Shown here one piece after another: positions 34,294-64,000 of a stretch of DNA of 64,000 bases; within the stretch, counting starts at the first letter, position 1; every line of letters starts with the position of its first letter. A program made the position numbers and the translations under genes. This DNA is from Candidatus Poribacteria bacterium. Its GTDB lineage: Bacteria > Poribacteria > WGA-4E > JAJDTR01. Location of the stretch: assembly GCA_965222225.1 (NCBI GenBank), contig CBDCTK010000002.1, positions 1,888,001 to 1,952,000 of the forward strand. The letters run 5' to 3'. The notes under the pieces were generated by a model. The model was not told the DNA's origin and did no database searches. It saw only the letters and a program-made list of their open reading frames with translations.

Positions 34294-34713
34294 TCTATAC
34301 AATCAACCGAGTAGTAAGCACACTCCGCTGTGCCGTAACCTACACGATACGTACCGGACTCCCATGTAGGTTGGGATCAAGCGACCGAATAGCGAGGAAT
34401 CAAAGGAACGGATAGTGACTGCGATAGAGATCCACCGCCCACCAGTTTCTTTTTGCAGGGCGGAATCGGCAATCGTCAAATCGCCGATTTTCTCTCTTAC
34501 CGCCCATCAACCTCTGTAAACCTTAGCATGCAATCCACAATCATCAAATCAAGACAAAAACTTTGTGCTGCTTTTTCAAGCCCCGGAGGGGCGGAAGGTG
34601 TATAGTAACACCGAACCCCCCGTGCACCTAAGCCCCAGCGTGGAATCAAGCGACTGAATAGGGAGTGCGATAGCAAATCCCATGCGATAGAGATCCGCCA
34701 CCCACCAGCCATT

Positions 34714-34930
34714 CAAGCCGTCAGAGCGGCGACAGGCGCATAGAACACCCAACGAACGTCCTCATCAATTCGTCGATTGCCCCTCATATCCTGCATGTCT
34801 ATAAAATAACGACATGCCCAAATTCCGCGCTCTAGCAGAGCGCAATGTCGATAGCATAAATATGCCCGATGCCCCGCACTCCGGAGGAGTGCAATGTCTT
34901 AAAACCCCGAGCGTGAAATCAAATACAATC
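34714..34930 (+). repeat. ~215-bp intergenic direct repeat, copy 1 (copy 2 at about 40820-41036)
   Basis: TCAAGCCGTCAGAGCGGCGACA...GCGCTCTAGCAGAGCGC...GCACTCCGGAGGAGTGC...AAATCAAATACAA is near-identical at both sites. Confidence 0.9.
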
Positions 34931-35127
34931 AAGCGAGTGGACAATGAGCGATCAAGTGAGCGAATAGCGAATGCGATAGAGATCTTTTCCCGATCGTTAC
35001 GAAACTTGGTGGGCGGGCATCAAGCGAACGAATAGTCCGTAGGTTGGGTTGGGCACAGCGAAACCCAACCTACGGACTATTTGTCAACCCAAAGAACTTA
35101 GGCTTACCTCAAAGACTCCCTTCCACC

Positions 35128-35358
35128 CTTCCCACTCGCGGCCGCTTTTACTGACCACTAGTCACTGTCTTCCCGCGCCGTCCCTCGAAACCTCATAGCC
35201 AACACACCAAAGCAATCGAATTAAACAAAAGCAACGTCGAAATAGCATTAATCTCCGGCGTAATCCCGAACTTCAGTTTCGAATAAATATGCACCGGCAA
35301 CGTAGTATAGCCCACCCCCGCCGTGAAGAACGAGATGACGAAATCATCAATCGACAAC
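35128..35358 (-). pseudogene. Duplicated 3' end of potC
   Basis: Near-identical to about 35449-35686; ends exactly at the hairpin element at 35359. Confidence 0.9.
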
Positions 35359-35490
35359 GATCAACCGACCGAATAGCGAGGGATCAAAGGAACGGATAGT
35401 GACTGCGATAGAAATCCCAGAGAGCACAGCGTAACCCAACTAAACCATCCTTCCTACTCACGGCTGCTTTTACTGACCACTAGCCACTGG

Positions 35491-60383: not shown

Positions 60384-60837
60384 TTCCCCTCCACTGAGAT
60401 ACGAACAAGGCTCTCCCCGTAGGGGTTGGGTCTCCCAACCCGTTGCGTACCAATCAACTGAGATCGAGGGAGTGAATAACGACCGCGATAGCGCTCCCAT
60501 CGTGACCGACAAGCCAACTACTGTAGGAGCGACCTCCCGGTCGCGACCAATAAAGCGAGCGAATAGCGATCAAGCGACTGGTCACTGAGCGATCAAAGAA
60601 CAGATAGTTCGTAGGGTGGGCACTGCCCACCATTTGACCTACGCCACGATTATCAAATCGCCGCTTTCCTCTTTTACCGCCCACCATTTCAATGCGGCGC
60701 AATCCACATTCGCCAAATCAAAGCGCTAGATAGAGCTGTAGGGTGCGCACCGCGATCAAGCGAATGAATAATGAGTGATCAAAGCAATGAATAATGACTG
60801 CGATAGAAAATCCTGATAGAAATCCTACCAGCCTTTT

Positions 60838-63180
60838 TTAAAGACGACTGTCTCTCGGCTCCAGCCGCTGATGCGATTCCGCTTCCAATCGAATTTGCTC
60901 CCAATCCCAAAGCTGCGGAATATATTCGACATTCGCCCAAGCCTCCGCCTGATCCGCATAATGCACGCTTGCCGGATGCCCCGACGCCCCCAACGGCACA
61001 ATCCACCGAGATTTCGTCCAATCCGACGGGTCATGGATATACCGATTCACCGACATGCTCGTTGCGACAAACTCATTCTGCAGCCCGTAGCCTCCGGCGA
61101 TCGGCGTGTCCCCGTCACCGTGAGTCGAAACCGAGGGCGGATCCAAGCCTTCGGCAGATTCCGGAAATACCGCCGACAACGGGTGACGCGGATCCGTACG
61201 GTGCATCCGCCCCCACCGCCATTGGGACATATCCTCCCCCAGCATATCCCTTAGTTCCCCGACCGCGCGACTGAGACTCCCAGCCAGCAACTCCTCCCAG
61301 CCGGTTTCGGGAGGCAACATGGACGCATCGCCCCGTCCAAGCCCCAGCGTCATCTGCTCGACGATTTGACGAAGGACGGTCGTGCTGCCGGCAGCTTCCG
61401 AGAGTACCTCCGACGCAAAATCCCCCAACAGATGCTCGACGACCCGGCGGATGAGGTGCACCTTTGTCTTGGCGTAGATGAGCGGCTGCGCCAAATCGCG
61501 ATCAATGCGGAAATCCCATTCCCGCATCAAAGCGAGCGCAGCCTCCGACTCTGCGTCAAGCGGCTCAACGCCGATCAATGCCCGCGTAAAGACTCGCGCC
61601 GGCTCGGAGATTCTGTCGGCGTGGATGCGCGCCATGTCGCTCACCGTCGCCGTCTTCGGTTCAAGTGCGAGGATGCCCGCTTGCACCCGCCGCGCGCGGT
61701 GTTCCGGAGTGAAACACAACCCCACATAGTAGGGGTAATCGTGCCCCGCCACGCGCTGATTGCAGGTGACCGCATACCCCGCCTCCGGGTTGATGGCTTT
61801 GGGCAATTCGTTGTGCGGAATGTAGCCGTCCCATTCGTACTCGCCCGTCCAACCGGGCACCGCACGCCATCCGTTCGCCTCCCCCCGAATCGGAATCTTG
61901 CCCGCGTGGATATAGCCGAAGTTCCCGTCTACATCAGCCACCGCATAATTGTTGACGCGGTCCGTCCAATGCCGAAAGGCTTCGTGCAAATCGGCGACCG
62001 ATCGACTTTTCATGGCATCGAGCGCGGCGTCCACCCAATACGACCCGTCAATCAGTCCGGGGTCGCTGATTGCCACGCCGACGCCCGTCGCCGGATCACC
62101 CGCAATCACGGGCCCATGATGTGTGATCGTCACCTCAAGCTCTACCGAATCCCCTCCGCGTGCATCAATCGTCTCGTTCAGCACCTCCGCCTCGCGCCAT
62201 TCATCCTTGAACCGATACTCGCGTCCGTCCGGTGTTTCCCGGAACTGTTCGATGAACAAATCCTGTGTATCCGCGCTGCCATAGGTCATCCCCCACGCCA
62301 CATGGTCGTTGTGACAAAAGTGGAGAGCGCCCGGCATCCCCGGCACCGAATGCCCAATAACCGAGAATTCGGGGCACGAGAGGTGAATCTGATAGTAGAC
62401 GCTCGGCGTGTCCAGCGCACGGTGCGAGTCGCCCGCAACCAGCGGCAATCCCGACGCCGTCAGCTCCCCGGAGATCGACCACGCATTCGATCCGAAATCG
62501 GTCTCATTCAGCCAGTTCACCTCTTCCGCGGCTCTCGTGAGTTCCTCAAGTCCGTTCAGCGGTGCGCCTTCATACACGGCGCCCGGAGGCACCGTGAGCA
62601 GGTGTCCGGCGGGATAGCCCTTGATTAGACTCGCCGCCCTCTCCCCGCCAACCGCAATCGCCAGCCTCGTCATGAACAGCTTCGGCTCGAATGTGCCCAA
62701 TAGCGTGTTGCGCATCTTGTAGACGGCGAGGCAGTGCCAATTCTCCCACCGTTCCGGCCGCTCGTCCAAGAGTTTGTACTCAATCGGGATGGTCCTTGTC
62801 GTATCAATAAAGGCGTTCACGCCAGCCGTATAAGCATCGACCATAGACTTTGCGGCGGGACTGGCAAGCTTGCAATCCAGTTTCGCCGTGCGTCCCATGC
62901 CCGCCGCCCGCAGCAGACGGTCTCTCTCAACCCCGCTCGCTCCGGAGAATTCCGACCATCTTCCGAGCGCTTGGTGCCGGTCAAAATCCATGTGCCACAG
63001 CCGATCTTGGGCGGTCGCGAACCCTTGCGCGAAGAACAGATCCGCCTCGTTCTCGGCTCGAATATGGGGAATCCCCCACCGATCTCGGTACACCTCCACA
63101 GCCGCGCCGAGTTCGGGCAGCCGCATCGTCGTGGTGAGTTCGGGCAGTGCGGATTTGAAGTCGTTCTCGGTAATCTTCAT
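60838..63180 (-). CDS. Penicillin acylase family (Ntn hydrolase) protein
   Basis: RDRWGIPHI, QGF..AQDRLW, GSNAW beta-chain start, DSHR. Confidence 0.93.
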   Translation of the reverse strand: MKITENDFKSALPELTTTMRLPELGAAVEVYRDRWGIPHIRAENEADLFFAQGFATAQDRLWHMDFDRHQALGRWSEFSGASGVERDRLLRAAGMGRTAKLDCKLASPAAKSMVDAYTAGVNAFIDTTRTIPIEYKLLDERPERWENWHCLAVYKMRNTLLGTFEPKLFMTRLAIAVGGERAASLIKGYPAGHLLTVPPGAVYEGAPLNGLEELTRAAEEVNWLNETDFGSNAWSISGELTASGLPLVAGDSHRALDTPSVYYQIHLSCPEFSVIGHSVPGMPGALHFCHNDHVAWGMTYGSADTQDLFIEQFRETPDGREYRFKDEWREAEVLNETIDARGGDSVELEVTITHHGPVIAGDPATGVGVAISDPGLIDGSYWVDAALDAMKSRSVADLHEAFRHWTDRVNNYAVADVDGNFGYIHAGKIPIRGEANGWRAVPGWTGEYEWDGYIPHNELPKAINPEAGYAVTCNQRVAGHDYPYYVGLCFTPEHRARRVQAGILALEPKTATVSDMARIHADRISEPARVFTRALIGVEPLDAESEAALALMREWDFRIDRDLAQPLIYAKTKVHLIRRVVEHLLGDFASEVLSEAAGSTTVLRQIVEQMTLGLGRGDASMLPPETGWEELLAGSLSRAVGELRDMLGEDMSQWRWGRMHRTDPRHPLSAVFPESAEGLDPPSVSTHGDGDTPIAGGYGLQNEFVATSMSVNRYIHDPSDWTKSRWIVPLGASGHPASVHYADQAEAWANVEYIPQLWDWEQIRLEAESHQRLEPRDSRL

Positions 63181-63356
63181 GTGCGTTGTCCTTAGTTCGA
63201 ATGTCAGGAGCTAAAGTTCCAGTCTACAGGAGCGATGGAAAATAGAGTTCGGGTCTCGGTTCCTGGCGATGATGGGCAATAAGAGAAGAACTCGGCGATT
63301 CGATAACGGATTTCTCTCGCAGGTCTTGCTATCGCCCTCGCTATTCACTCGGTTGA

Positions 63357-63464
63357 TCCCCATCGATCCCGGTACACGTCGACAGCCTCTCCGAGTTCGG
63401 GCAGCCGCATCGTCGTGGTGAGGTCCGGCAGTGCGGATTTGAAGTCGTTTTCGGTAATCTTCAT
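63357..63464 (-). pseudogene. Diverged second copy of the penicillin acylase 5' end
   Basis: MKITENDFKSALPDLTTTMRLPELGEAVDVYRDRWG, cut off at the inverted hairpin element. Confidence 0.88.
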
Positions 63465-64000
63465 TTCCATTGTCCGTATATCATGCATTCTAAAGTACGT
63501 TTGTAGGGTGGGATCAAAGGAACGGATAGTGACTGCGATAGAGTTCCCCTGCCCACCATTTCTTTTAGGATACGATTGTAGATTGTCAAATCCCCGATTT
63601 TCCCTCTTACTGGAATTAGACAAACGAATAATGAATGCTATAGACCTCTTAGAGAGTTCCCACTAGCACCGTAGGCGGGGCATCTTGCCCCGCCCACAGC
63701 TAACCTGTAGGAGCGAGTTCCACTCGCGACTCTGTAGGATTAAACGAGCGAATAGCGAGTGCGATGGAGATCCCGCTGCCCCACATTGGAAAGACTTCAT
63801 TACCCTAAGTTGCCATCTTTGTAGCACGATCTGTTAGATTGTGCATGTGATACGCAAACTGACACATTGCGCGACTACATCTACACAATTAATCGTCTAT
63901 GTTCAATAAAAATTGATGGGGATTGTCTATATTCTTCTAAGTAACAACTTGGGTCAATTAACAAAATTCGCCATCCGTGTAGCACAATCTGTTAGATTGT

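Follow-up and report, generated by a model that had tools for sequence, protein, structure and literature searches.

What is a hairpin of about 35 nucleotides (nt) that changes the letters of its stems from copy to copy while keeping their pairing, and how does it come to be scattered through a bacterial genome? The question is raised by a 64,000-nt stretch of DNA, hereafter the window, from a metagenome-assembled genome (MAG) of Candidatus Poribacteria (assembly GCA_965222225.1, contig CBDCTK010000002.1, positions 1,888,001-1,952,000, forward strand). The window's genome is a 5.7-Mb assembly in two contigs and belongs to an uncultivated, sponge-associated bacterium. A first-pass annotation, made from the letters of the window, had pointed out the repeat and proposed it as a candidate new system. 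With a probability of roughly 0.6, we conclude that the repeats form a family of ~35-nt non-coding, non-autonomous mobile DNA elements, present in two Candidatus Poribacteria genera and moved in trans as a hairpin of single-stranded DNA (ssDNA).

We have defined as a complete copy any match, with up to 2 mismatches, to the consensus given in the first-pass annotation, GATCAA-N1-GA-N2-GRATA-N3-GA-N4-GCGATAG-ARATCC, in which N1 to N4 are variable dinucleotides. The window contains 28 such matches, 25 on the + strand and 3 on the - strand, all of them within 34398-63767, compared with none in 100 dinucleotide-preserving shuffles of the same sequence. A further 18 partial or interrupted hairpin modules lie in 34375-63773, and most of these are the 5' parts of copies broken by another copy. 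In positions 1-34000, neither the consensus pattern nor a covariance model trained on 148 distinct copies (the 28 of the window plus 120 from other MAGs) detected a real copy. The earlier hand count of 27 fully paired copies out of 28 was reproduced by script with G.T counted as a pair, the remaining copy, at 43425, pairing at three of the four positions. Seven of the eight example coordinates quoted with it were also correct, the eighth copy starting at 59296 and not at 59306, while the start given for the whole array, 34375, turned out to be that of a truncated resident copy with a complete copy nested in it at 34398.

The same definition yielded 978 complete copies in the window's genome, and a search for hairpin modules gave 1369 hits, compared with 9 for a reversed-pattern control. 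All four positions pair in 831 of the 978 copies. Altogether, 95.6% of the cells are paired, against a mean of 58.3% and a maximum of 60.0% in 200 column shuffles, so that the proposed pairing of N1 with N4 and of N2 with N3 holds genome-wide as it does in the window. The copies carry 218 distinct stem combinations. When mutual information was calculated over 957 distinct 60-mers, the four predicted pairs stood out (1.21, 1.00, 0.81 and 0.44 bits), and the sole other value above 0.3 bits was a register effect in the tail. Values between N1 and N2 and between stems and flanks stayed at or below about 0.25 bits; the stems assort independently, and mutual information gave no coupling between variable stem and flank of the kind that a guide-target relationship would predict. 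Since N1 is far less linked to N2 than to N4, the covariation does not come from a few amplified subfamilies, which answers the worry that related copies might have produced it. On the 148 copies, the inner helix is 95.4% paired, its 4 pairs all vary on both sides, and the covariation score reaches 0.595, compared with 0.246 in shuffles (0 of 500 reach the observed value) and at most 0.141 with slid partners. Among the 978 copies, G.T or T.G cells are common (423) and A.C or C.A cells rare (57), which identifies the GATCAA strand as the constrained one; together with the covariation tests, this agrees with the strand that had been named as the folded one. Wobble is frequent only at the outermost and the loop-closing pairs, and amounts to ~3% at the two pairs that flank the GA/GA step.

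Regarding its anatomy, the hairpin is built of 2 bp (N1:N4), a tandem G.A/A.G step, 2 bp (N2:N3) and a GRATA loop whose G and A can pair, followed on the 3' side by a constant unpaired GCGATAG(A). In the window's genus there is also an outer stem, in which the target's G plus ATC pairs with the GATC of the 3' end. The avoidance of T as first and of A as last letter of the dinucleotides, noticed in the window, extends to the 978 copies, where each accounts for no more than 1% at the respective letter of all four dinucleotides. The letter 5' of each GA is C or T in 75-77% and G in 23-24% of cases and never A, the letter 3' of each GA is never T, and the pair closing the GRATA loop is always pyrimidine-purine. 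In other words, the stem pairs are nearly free provided that each G.A step keeps a pyrimidine on its 5' side and a purine on its 3' side, and the remaining letters are fixed. Such a neighbour context is where G.A pairs take the sheared form. The hairpin would hence be a continuous stack of two pairs, two sheared G.A pairs and two further pairs, with a G.A pair closing a three-base loop.

To delimit the unit, we took 701 complete tailed copies and sought the same flanks lying close together without the element elsewhere in the genome. Empty paralogous sites were found for 113 of the 701 copies, and 99 filled/empty pairs were evaluated. In the 55 pairs with a gap of 0-3 nt, the inserted block measures 34-42 nt, mostly 35-36 nt; it typically starts with ATCAA just after a G, ends with ATCC and has produced no target duplication. 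As the block starts after a G in the filled/empty sites, the first G of GATCAA belongs to the target, and the unit of ~35 nt reads ATCAA-N1-GA-N2-GRATA-N3-GA-N4-GCGATAG-ARATCC, one base shorter at its start than the first-pass annotation had it. The ARATCC given there as the outer end is correct for the window's genus and specific to it, a second genus having another end, described below. The clearest junctions are TCGGG^CTTCT, CTGCG^CACCA and GTGCG^CACTGC. Insertion usually occurs at G^C, with a loose target preference that can be written as G-W-G-S-G^.

The targets are the hairpins of GTAG-headed repetitive extragenic palindromes (REPs), the body of the element itself and, rarely, a gene. 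Self-insertion takes place mostly at GA-N4-G^CGATAG and also at other body positions, in both orientations. It accounts for the grammar of the arrays in the genome (H0T, 470 cases; H0H0T, 71; H0T10T, 38) and for the stacked, progressively truncated tails (CGATAG.., GATAG.., ATAG..) that follow the nested copies of the window. One of five paralogous tyrosine recombinase genes (C2:460255-461199) carries an in-frame copy that adds 11 codons, and the other four are empty at that position. Between species, one orthologous intergenic site spans 495 nt with four modules in the window and ~51 nt with no module in two other species, and its repeat content differs across all 8 genomes compared. The copy at 38936 belongs to a ~78-nt block that is absent at the orthologous site of three other species, and a syntenic comparison over 80 kb with the nearest genome that was found (aligned blocks 78-94% identical) gave differences in composite blocks. 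Skips of 36-38 nt at 37288 and 40603 in contigs from other sequencing runs were considered as alleles and rejected: their matching sides are 20-24 nt long and lie within repeats, so they reflect paralogous REPs. As judged from these alignments, the apparent mobility rests on paralogous filled/empty sites, nesting and the copy within a gene, and not on orthologous polymorphism. On the same grounds, the earlier description of the repeat as a mobile non-coding micro-element is borne out.

The element is the most abundant repeat of the genome, whose top-frequency 11-mers all derive from it. It is also strongly extragenic: only 208 of 1366 modules fall in crude open reading frame (ORF) calls, which span 81% of the genome, and some of these 208 are chance matches. 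Sixteen module matches lie deep within long ORFs; two of those checked are chance matches conserved in orthologues, and the one at C2:460877 is genuine. The distribution is patchy, with 42% of the modules within 13% of the 20-kb bins, and element density correlates positively with GC content genome-wide (rho 0.48). In the element-rich half of the window (32001-64000), GC skew ranges from -0.07 to -0.23 and GC content, at 0.51-0.57, is higher than in the other half; in the element-free part between 4 and 32 kb, GC skew is near zero.

Across the phylum, an exact match is found in 19 of 176 Poribacteria genomes, and high copy numbers are confined to two genera among these 176. The window's genus is element-rich in 10 of 10 genomes (its own included), with 280-761 exact matches each, and a second genus, from another family, carries 111-126 exact matches in each of its 4 genomes. 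In the second genus the hairpin and GCGATAG are unchanged and TCTT(C/A)TCC or TTTTTATAG replaces ARATCC; because its 3' end differs, the outer GATC/GATC stem is missing there. Five other genomes, from genera otherwise devoid of the element, hold 1-13 exact copies each, which could stem from horizontal transfer or from contamination during binning. In the sister genus g6, 400 kb sampled from one genome contained no look-alike, by either the architecture pattern or the 148-copy covariance model, and IMG/VR viral contigs and Joint Genome Institute (JGI) metagenome contigs gave 0 exact matches. In species-representative genomes, the motif matches listed are all in Poribacteria MAGs. The motif is supported beyond the assembly in which it was noticed: MAGs of other Poribacteria, assembled with SPAdes, with megahit or from long reads, contain it as well, 20 public runs from 7 studies include the stretch 37200-41300 (4.1 kb), and the copy at 38936 is covered by contigs of 4 runs belonging to 4 studies. 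Public runs with the window region include ones labelled sponge metagenome.

We then considered the strand on which the element lies. The folding strand is found mostly on the C-rich strand, regardless of the direction of the neighbouring genes: the ratio of + to - copies is 418:155 where regional GC skew is negative and 158:338 where it is positive, and this holds in every gene-orientation stratum. In 20-kb bins, the + strand share correlates with skew (rho -0.54, p 4e-10) and shows no significant correlation with gene-strand balance (rho +0.09). As strand follows GC skew and not gene direction, a DNA-level process is favoured over an RNA-level one and, of the two molecules left open by the first-pass annotation, ssDNA is the better supported. 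The dnaA gene, at 2.61 Mb, adjoins a switch from negative to positive skew. According to this layout, the + strand of the window, with 25 of its 28 copies, would be the template of the leading strand and hence identical in sequence to the nascent lagging strand; several further sign changes of the skew make the replichore map uncertain. Within 32-64 kb of the window, the skew is far stronger than replication alone usually gives.

The first-pass annotation also needs to be corrected as regards REPs, to which the element is tied: one in four modules is located within a GTAG-headed REP hairpin, in a single fixed orientation. GTAGG occurs within 25 nt upstream of 338 of the 1366 modules, compared with CCTAC upstream of 29, and in one REP with a palindromic stem, which offers the same letters on both strands, we counted 76 insertions on the GTAG strand and 1 on the other. 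A composite of one REP and the element (GTAGGGTGCG plus stems AG/AT/AT/CT) has been amplified at least 51 times, and AG/AT/AT/CT is the commonest stem combination of the genome, with 66 copies. The same REP offers two insertion sites (GTAGGGTGCG^CACTGCG^CACC), insertions are also seen in the loops or arms of four or more further REP families, and GTAGG-headed REPs also exist in the host without the element. The GTAGG-headed REP-like families of the genome include GTAGGAGCGATC.. (~170 copies), TTTGTAGGGTGCGCACTGCGCACCAGCCTTTG (~130), GTAGGGTGGGC..GCCCACC (~95) and GTAGGTTGGGTTGA (~100); REP-like repeats lie at 37385-37420 of the window and at many other genome sites, and there is in addition an AAGCCCC.G.GGGGCGACA family. 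All these families show the same strand bias relative to GC skew as the element. Taken together, the strand bias and the co-orientation with REPs fit an ssDNA process that is shared with REPs or parasitic on them.

Hence, one could argue that the element is not mobile by itself, and that it is a loop or extension variant of GTAG-headed REPs, spread only by their REP-associated tyrosine transposases (RAYTs). The 338 same-strand GTAGG heads, the amplified composite that also supplies the commonest stems, the strand bias common to REPs and element and the presence of RAYT genes in the genome all speak for this explanation. However, the unit occurs in at least 5 unrelated REP families, at two sites of a single REP, at several points and in either orientation within its own copies, and in a coding gene; besides, some three in four modules lack a nearby GTAGG, and units inserted at one and the same REP site differ in their stems. 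We consequently consider a REP variant an unlikely account of the whole family.

Our preferred reading, a non-autonomous element moved in trans, would work as follows. The element would move as ssDNA, and an enzyme encoded elsewhere would cut and join it, reading the fixed letters and the shape of the hairpin and not the letters of the stems. The likeliest candidate would be one of the genome's HUH Y1 transposases, of the IS200/RAYT type. Through repeated rounds of copying, stem diversity would accumulate as only pairing is selected, and some copies would have spread passively within REPs that were themselves amplified.

Several results weigh against this reading, and most of them concern the enzyme. 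We searched the Y1_Tnp domain (PF01797) in the window's genome and in 40 relatives, and inspected the flanks of each locus in the window's own genome, where 5 matches exceed the Pfam cut-off. Two of the five loci have inverted copies of the element beside them. An intact gene for a 157-aa RAYT-like Y1 protein (C2:3080255-3080728) has element copies on both sides, with GCCCC..GGGGC REPs as its flanking family; the element is next to it because the downstream REP was interrupted by the element, and in other genera the clade of this RAYT is flanked by AAGCCCC..GGGGCGACA REPs and not by the element. Another Y1 gene (C2:3088937-3089269), with one in-frame TAG, is flanked by inverted GTAGGAGCGATC REPs in the classic REPtron layout. 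A Y1 fragment with inverted element copies has intact relatives in 6 genomes, none with a copy within 1.5 kb, and relatives of two of the searched Y1 proteins also occur in the element-free genus g6. Over the loci of the window's genome and the relatives of these two proteins, no Y1 clade was consistently flanked by the element or limited to element-bearing genera, and the genome-wide searches as a whole tied no enzyme to it. We infer, as the first-pass annotation did, trans mobilisation by a shape-reading HUH or integrase enzyme; the search for a flanking or co-distributed gene linked none of them to the element.

Other enzyme classes gave similar results. The genome has no match to the TnpB-type domain PF07282, and none to Y2_Tnp (PF04986), for which the control genomes were equally silent and the result is uninformative. 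The reverse transcriptase domain (PF00078, RVT_1) gave one weak match, in a 670-aa ORF within C2:4499560-4503471 on the - strand, with no element within 2 kb; this ORF adjoins a 483-aa ORF, guessed to be helicase- or restriction-like, and the two may form a defence locus. In an all-against-all comparison of crude ORF calls, no multi-copy family systematically borders the element. Among such families, one of 46 copies (284 aa, with a zinc-ribbon-like N-terminus) and one of 22 copies (339 aa) were guessed to be transposases from their first residues only. Modules are present within 200 nt on both sides of 85 of 4307 ORFs, which are mostly ordinary genes.

The remaining adverse points concern the strand, the fold and the insertion itself. 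The folding strand lies mostly on the C-rich strand, i.e. the leading-strand template or nascent lagging strand, which is the opposite of the rule for IS608 and ISDra2, described in PMC6006769 as preferring the lagging-strand template. Such a bias reflects either a different pathway or a survival effect. As to the latter, stable hairpins are more prone to loss when they lie on the lagging-strand template. The naked hairpin is not predicted to be unusually stable, its folding energies being -1 to -6 kcal/mol with DNA parameters, at z-scores of -1.1 to +0.5; with RNA parameters, the z-scores are again unremarkable. The support for the proposed fold is thus comparative, coming from aligned copies, and not thermodynamic. 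An offset of 1-3 nt is common at the junctions, and larger mismatching stretches occur in 44 of the 99 filled/empty pairs, so that the exact cut points are not fixed; these 44 pairs are of little use for placing the junction because their paralogous flanks differ. Finally, one 7-kb and one 80-kb syntenic comparison between species revealed intergenic repeat blocks that turn over fast, and no clean presence/absence of a single unit at an orthologous site.

These same observations can be read as a novel kind of DNA movement, in which a 35-nt purine-zipper hairpin, with two Watson-Crick dinucleotide steps around sheared G.A pairs, would leave and enter the DNA as a single-stranded oligonucleotide, through enzymes that have no relation to the RAYTs of the REPs around it. 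The place of joining might be G^C in the nascent lagging strand, which would explain the location on the C-rich strand, opposite to that of IS200/IS605, as well as the entry into other hairpins and into the element itself. We consider this possibility doubtful. If it were true, no smaller piece of independently mobile DNA would be known, and nature would have mutated its stem to saturation.

Rather improbable, in our view, is a third explanation, according to which a tyrosine recombinase acts on the folded single strand much as on the attC sites of integrons. In attC sites, the ends are likewise fixed, the middle part varies while remaining paired, extra-helical bases indicate the active strand and a single strand is used; the element follows a similar logic, with its fixed ends, covarying middle part, constant unpaired stretch on the 3' side and strict choice of strand. 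The genome does contain a candidate, a two-gene module coding for a tyrosine recombinase of the Phage_integrase family (~303-316 aa) and a 379-aa protein without a Pfam match. It is present in five copies with 77-90% protein identity, at C2:1313887-1316304 and, as paralogues, at 458772, 3334447, 3989323 and 4161171, and four of the five have element copies in or beside them. A search for orthologues of the recombinase with at least 69% identity was positive for 8 of the 9 other genomes in the window's genus, for 3 of 4 in the second genus and for 1 of 7 in g6, and gave 0 of 10 for g3. However, the homology between the modules stops at the genes, the element copies being outside or in a non-conserved spacer, and one module has no copy within 900 nt. 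Besides, two element-rich genomes have no close orthologue, one element-free genome has one, and the element shows no RYYYAAC/GTTRRRY core sites.

A motif acting at the RNA level, such as a protein-binding or stabilising hairpin with tandem G.A pairs in transcripts, is very unlikely. It would agree with the tolerance of G.U-type wobble, with the proposed fold being the one of lowest energy under RNA parameters for 3 of the 4 copies tested, and with contigs of the region in metatranscriptome libraries, although presence in an RNA library does not show transcription. Nevertheless, the element has no preference of orientation or gene end, since, with its own strand as reference, co-directional flanking genes number 429 and anti-directional ones 353, next to 183 convergent and 193 divergent cases. 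Of the 28 complete copies of the window, 25 lie on the + strand and most of the long ORFs of 43-63 kb on the - strand, so that transcripts of those genes would carry the complement, which does not fold in this way. Furthermore, the strand tracks GC skew, copies nest and break each other's stems, and there is no Rfam match. Last, a structural site in DNA for, e.g., a nucleoid or topoisomerase protein, kept at each locus by host selection and not by mobility, would account for the extragenic location and the highly conserved fixed letters, and is highly improbable given that element content at orthologous intergenic sites varies in every species compared, that copies are nested or interrupted, and that the element is patchy along the genome and not found in most of the phylum.

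The copies of the window are arranged as follows; all those given below are on the + strand unless otherwise stated. Complete single copies lie directly 3' of a GTAGGTTGG REP head at 38936-38971, in the ~78-nt block mentioned above, and at 49637-49672; a further single copy is at 46579-46614. Several copies are associated with the arms or loops of other REPs. The one at 40603-40638 lies within GTAGGGTGCGCACTGCG^..ACCAGC (site B of that REP family), the one at 40665-40700 follows a AAGCCCCAGAGTGG arm of the GCCCC..GGGGC family, the one at 43425-43460, which is the only complete copy with three of four pairs, follows a AAGCCCAGAGTGG arm, and the one at 63512-63547 lies within GTAGGGTGG^..CCTGCCCACC in place of the REP loop. 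At 34644-34697, a complete copy (34644-34680) after a AGCCCCAGCGTGG arm is followed by a second, stacked tail, GCGATAGAGATCC. A complete copy at 46481-46517, after a GTAGGAGGG head, precedes a truncated tail (46481-46530 in total), and a copy with 2 mismatches, at 63738-63773, follows a GTAG head. On the - strand, complete copies are found at 58830-58864, after a GTAGGG head and with a diverged outer tail (TATTCTT), and at 63323-63358.

Other copies form nested pairs, made of a resident 5' module and a complete copy inside it. The first, at 34375-34433, has its resident module (34375-34397) preceded by a GTAGGTTGG REP head and its complete copy at 34398-34433. Similar pairs span 34927-34985 (complete copy 34950-34985) and 35359-35417 (35382-35417). 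At 37265-37352, the complete copy (37288-37324) is followed by stacked truncated tails (..AATAGCAAATCCC GT GCGATAGAGATCC), and at 37578-37665 stacked truncated tails likewise follow the copy at 37601-37637, the resident 5' module being degenerate. Another degenerate resident, at 41053-41127, encloses the copy at 41076-41112 and keeps its truncated tail, CGATAGAAATCCC. In the pair at 43679-43752, the copy at 43702-43738 precedes the truncated tail GATAGCAAATCC, and in that at 60754-60827, where the resident follows a GTAGG head, the copy at 60777-60813 precedes GATAGAAATCC. Residents can also be interrupted elsewhere: in the loop at 45123-45217 (resident 45123-45139, followed by complete copies at 45140-45176 and 45182-45217), and after N3 at 58240-58295 (complete copy 58259-58295). 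Two triple nested arrays were found. That at 56561-56680 comprises two resident 5' modules, a complete copy at 56607-56643 and stacked tails; that at 59254-59358 comprises a first resident, a second one interrupted after N3 and the complete copy at 59296-59332, and the tails of the array follow in reverse order (GT GCGATAGAAATCCC, then ATAGAGATCCCC). The only inverted pair of modules in the window, at 52435-52510, consists of a + strand resident (52435-52457, tail GATAGAGATCC) broken by a complete copy in the opposite orientation (52459-52495, - strand).

A complete copy with 2 mismatches (56438-56474) is followed by the truncated tail CGATAGAAATCCC, the two spanning 56438-56488, and the complete copy at 60462-60497 begins with GATCGA and has a diverged tail. 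The span 60549-60590 holds two hairpin modules that are degenerate or interrupted, and a degenerate module fragment with one of four pairs, at 56794-56816, may be a decayed copy. Among the genes of the window, an ORF on the - strand (46702-49584) codes for a 960-aa protein whose best matches are in Candidatus Poribacteria MAGs. Its last ~100 residues match MAGs of Bacteroidota, Ignavibacteria, Zixibacteria and Gemmatimonadota, among others, and the rest matches Poribacteria only; the C-terminal part may be a shared sorting or secretion domain.

With ~35 nt, the element would rank among the smallest mobile DNA units described. Its more than 1000 copies per genome amount to a natural saturation mutagenesis that separates the letters read by the enzyme from those that are merely paired, and the rule that every G.A step is preceded by a pyrimidine and followed by a purine indicates a specific three-dimensional shape. 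The enzyme responsible for moving the element would be a candidate for a shape-specific cutter and joiner of ssDNA. For the genomics of sponge symbionts, the element marks two Poribacteria genera, visibly inflates intergenic regions, as at the orthologous site of 495 versus ~51 nt, and is a likely cause of assembly breaks.

In order to contextualize these results, we compared the element with known systems. Rfam gave 0 matches over the whole window at gathering thresholds, and 0 at E<=1 in 40500-41200, which contains three copies. Literature searches returned no description of the element (the REP family lists in the supplement of PMC3733652 were not covered). The first-pass annotation could assign it to no known family of REPs, attC sites, CRISPRs or miniature inverted-repeat transposable elements (MITEs), and we concur, as there is no Rfam match and features that define these classes are missing. 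MITEs have terminal inverted repeats of 15-30 bp and target site duplications; the element has 35 nt, a terminal complementarity of only 4 nt (GATC/GATC) and no duplication. Unlike CRISPR repeats, its copies are dispersed or abut at 0 nt with differing stems, in an irregular array grammar. In attC sites, the folded single strand is the substrate, the structure of the middle part is conserved over its sequence and unpaired bases mark the strand. The element resembles them in its folded strand, conserved pairing and unpaired bases, and differs in having no RYYYAAC/GTTRRRY boxes or cassette gene and in being dispersed or nested, not arrayed behind an attI site; no integron integrase was identified, and no search was aimed at IntI, attI or an integron platform.

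Mobile elements with enzymes of their own offer partial parallels. IS200/IS605 elements and their miniature derivatives insert 3' of a short target without duplication, by means of hairpins recognised by shape, in a strand-specific and replication-linked manner, as described in PMC6006769. The junctions of the element are similar: they directly follow a G, are ambiguous by 0-3 nt and show no duplication of the flanks. It differs from IS200/IS605 in being a single hairpin and not distinct left and right ends, in having no tnpB in the genome and no multi-copy gene bounded by it, in its loose target and in the opposite strand bias. IS1397 and ISKpn1 are insertion sequences that target REPs, according to titles cited in PMC3116915; like them, the element inserts in REP hairpins, but they encode their own transposase, whereas the element is 35 nt long and non-coding.

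The closest systems in behaviour are REPs and their REPIN arrangements, and also the small dispersed repeats (SDRs) of Nostocaceae. With REPs and REPINs the element shares its nature of short, extragenic, non-coding hairpins in hundreds of copies, with variable parts whose pairing is conserved; compensatory changes are reported for REPIN hairpins (PMC3116915), and REPs inserted in other palindromes have been described (PMC3733652). It differs from the GTAG and CGTC superfamilies of REPs, in which an unpaired tag ends a stem-loop of 20-40 bp (Di Nocera 2013), as the consensus of the 978 copies has neither tag and its unpaired constant GCGATAG sits 3' of the hairpin. Its stems have just 2+2 bp around a tandem G.A step, with a sequence diversity close to saturation. 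It does not form the inverted doublets of REPINs, its adjacent modules being direct, with 0-nt spacing, and explained by nesting, and the RAYT genes inspected carry other REP families at their flanks. Regarding the SDRs, SDR4-6 of Nostocaceae (Elhai et al. 2008, Genome Res 18:1484) are 21-27 nt long and are treated as mobile with no enzyme known (PMC4390886, PMC5861425, PMC13756078), and SDR5 is described as inserting between the third and fourth letters of GCGATCGC, i.e. after GCG and before ATC (PMC4390886, PMC5861425). The element likewise follows a G and starts with ATC, and SDRs may resemble it in nesting and hairpins too. It differs in being longer (35 nt) and in belonging to another phylum, SDRs being reported only in Nostocaceae (PMC5861425); this comparison is with descriptions of SDRs in citing papers. 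According to these likenesses, the label of a new system is better replaced: the element is best classed with the tiny REP/SDR-like hairpin elements, as a variant set apart by its size, its G.A-based fold, its near-saturated stem diversity and its unexplained strand bias.

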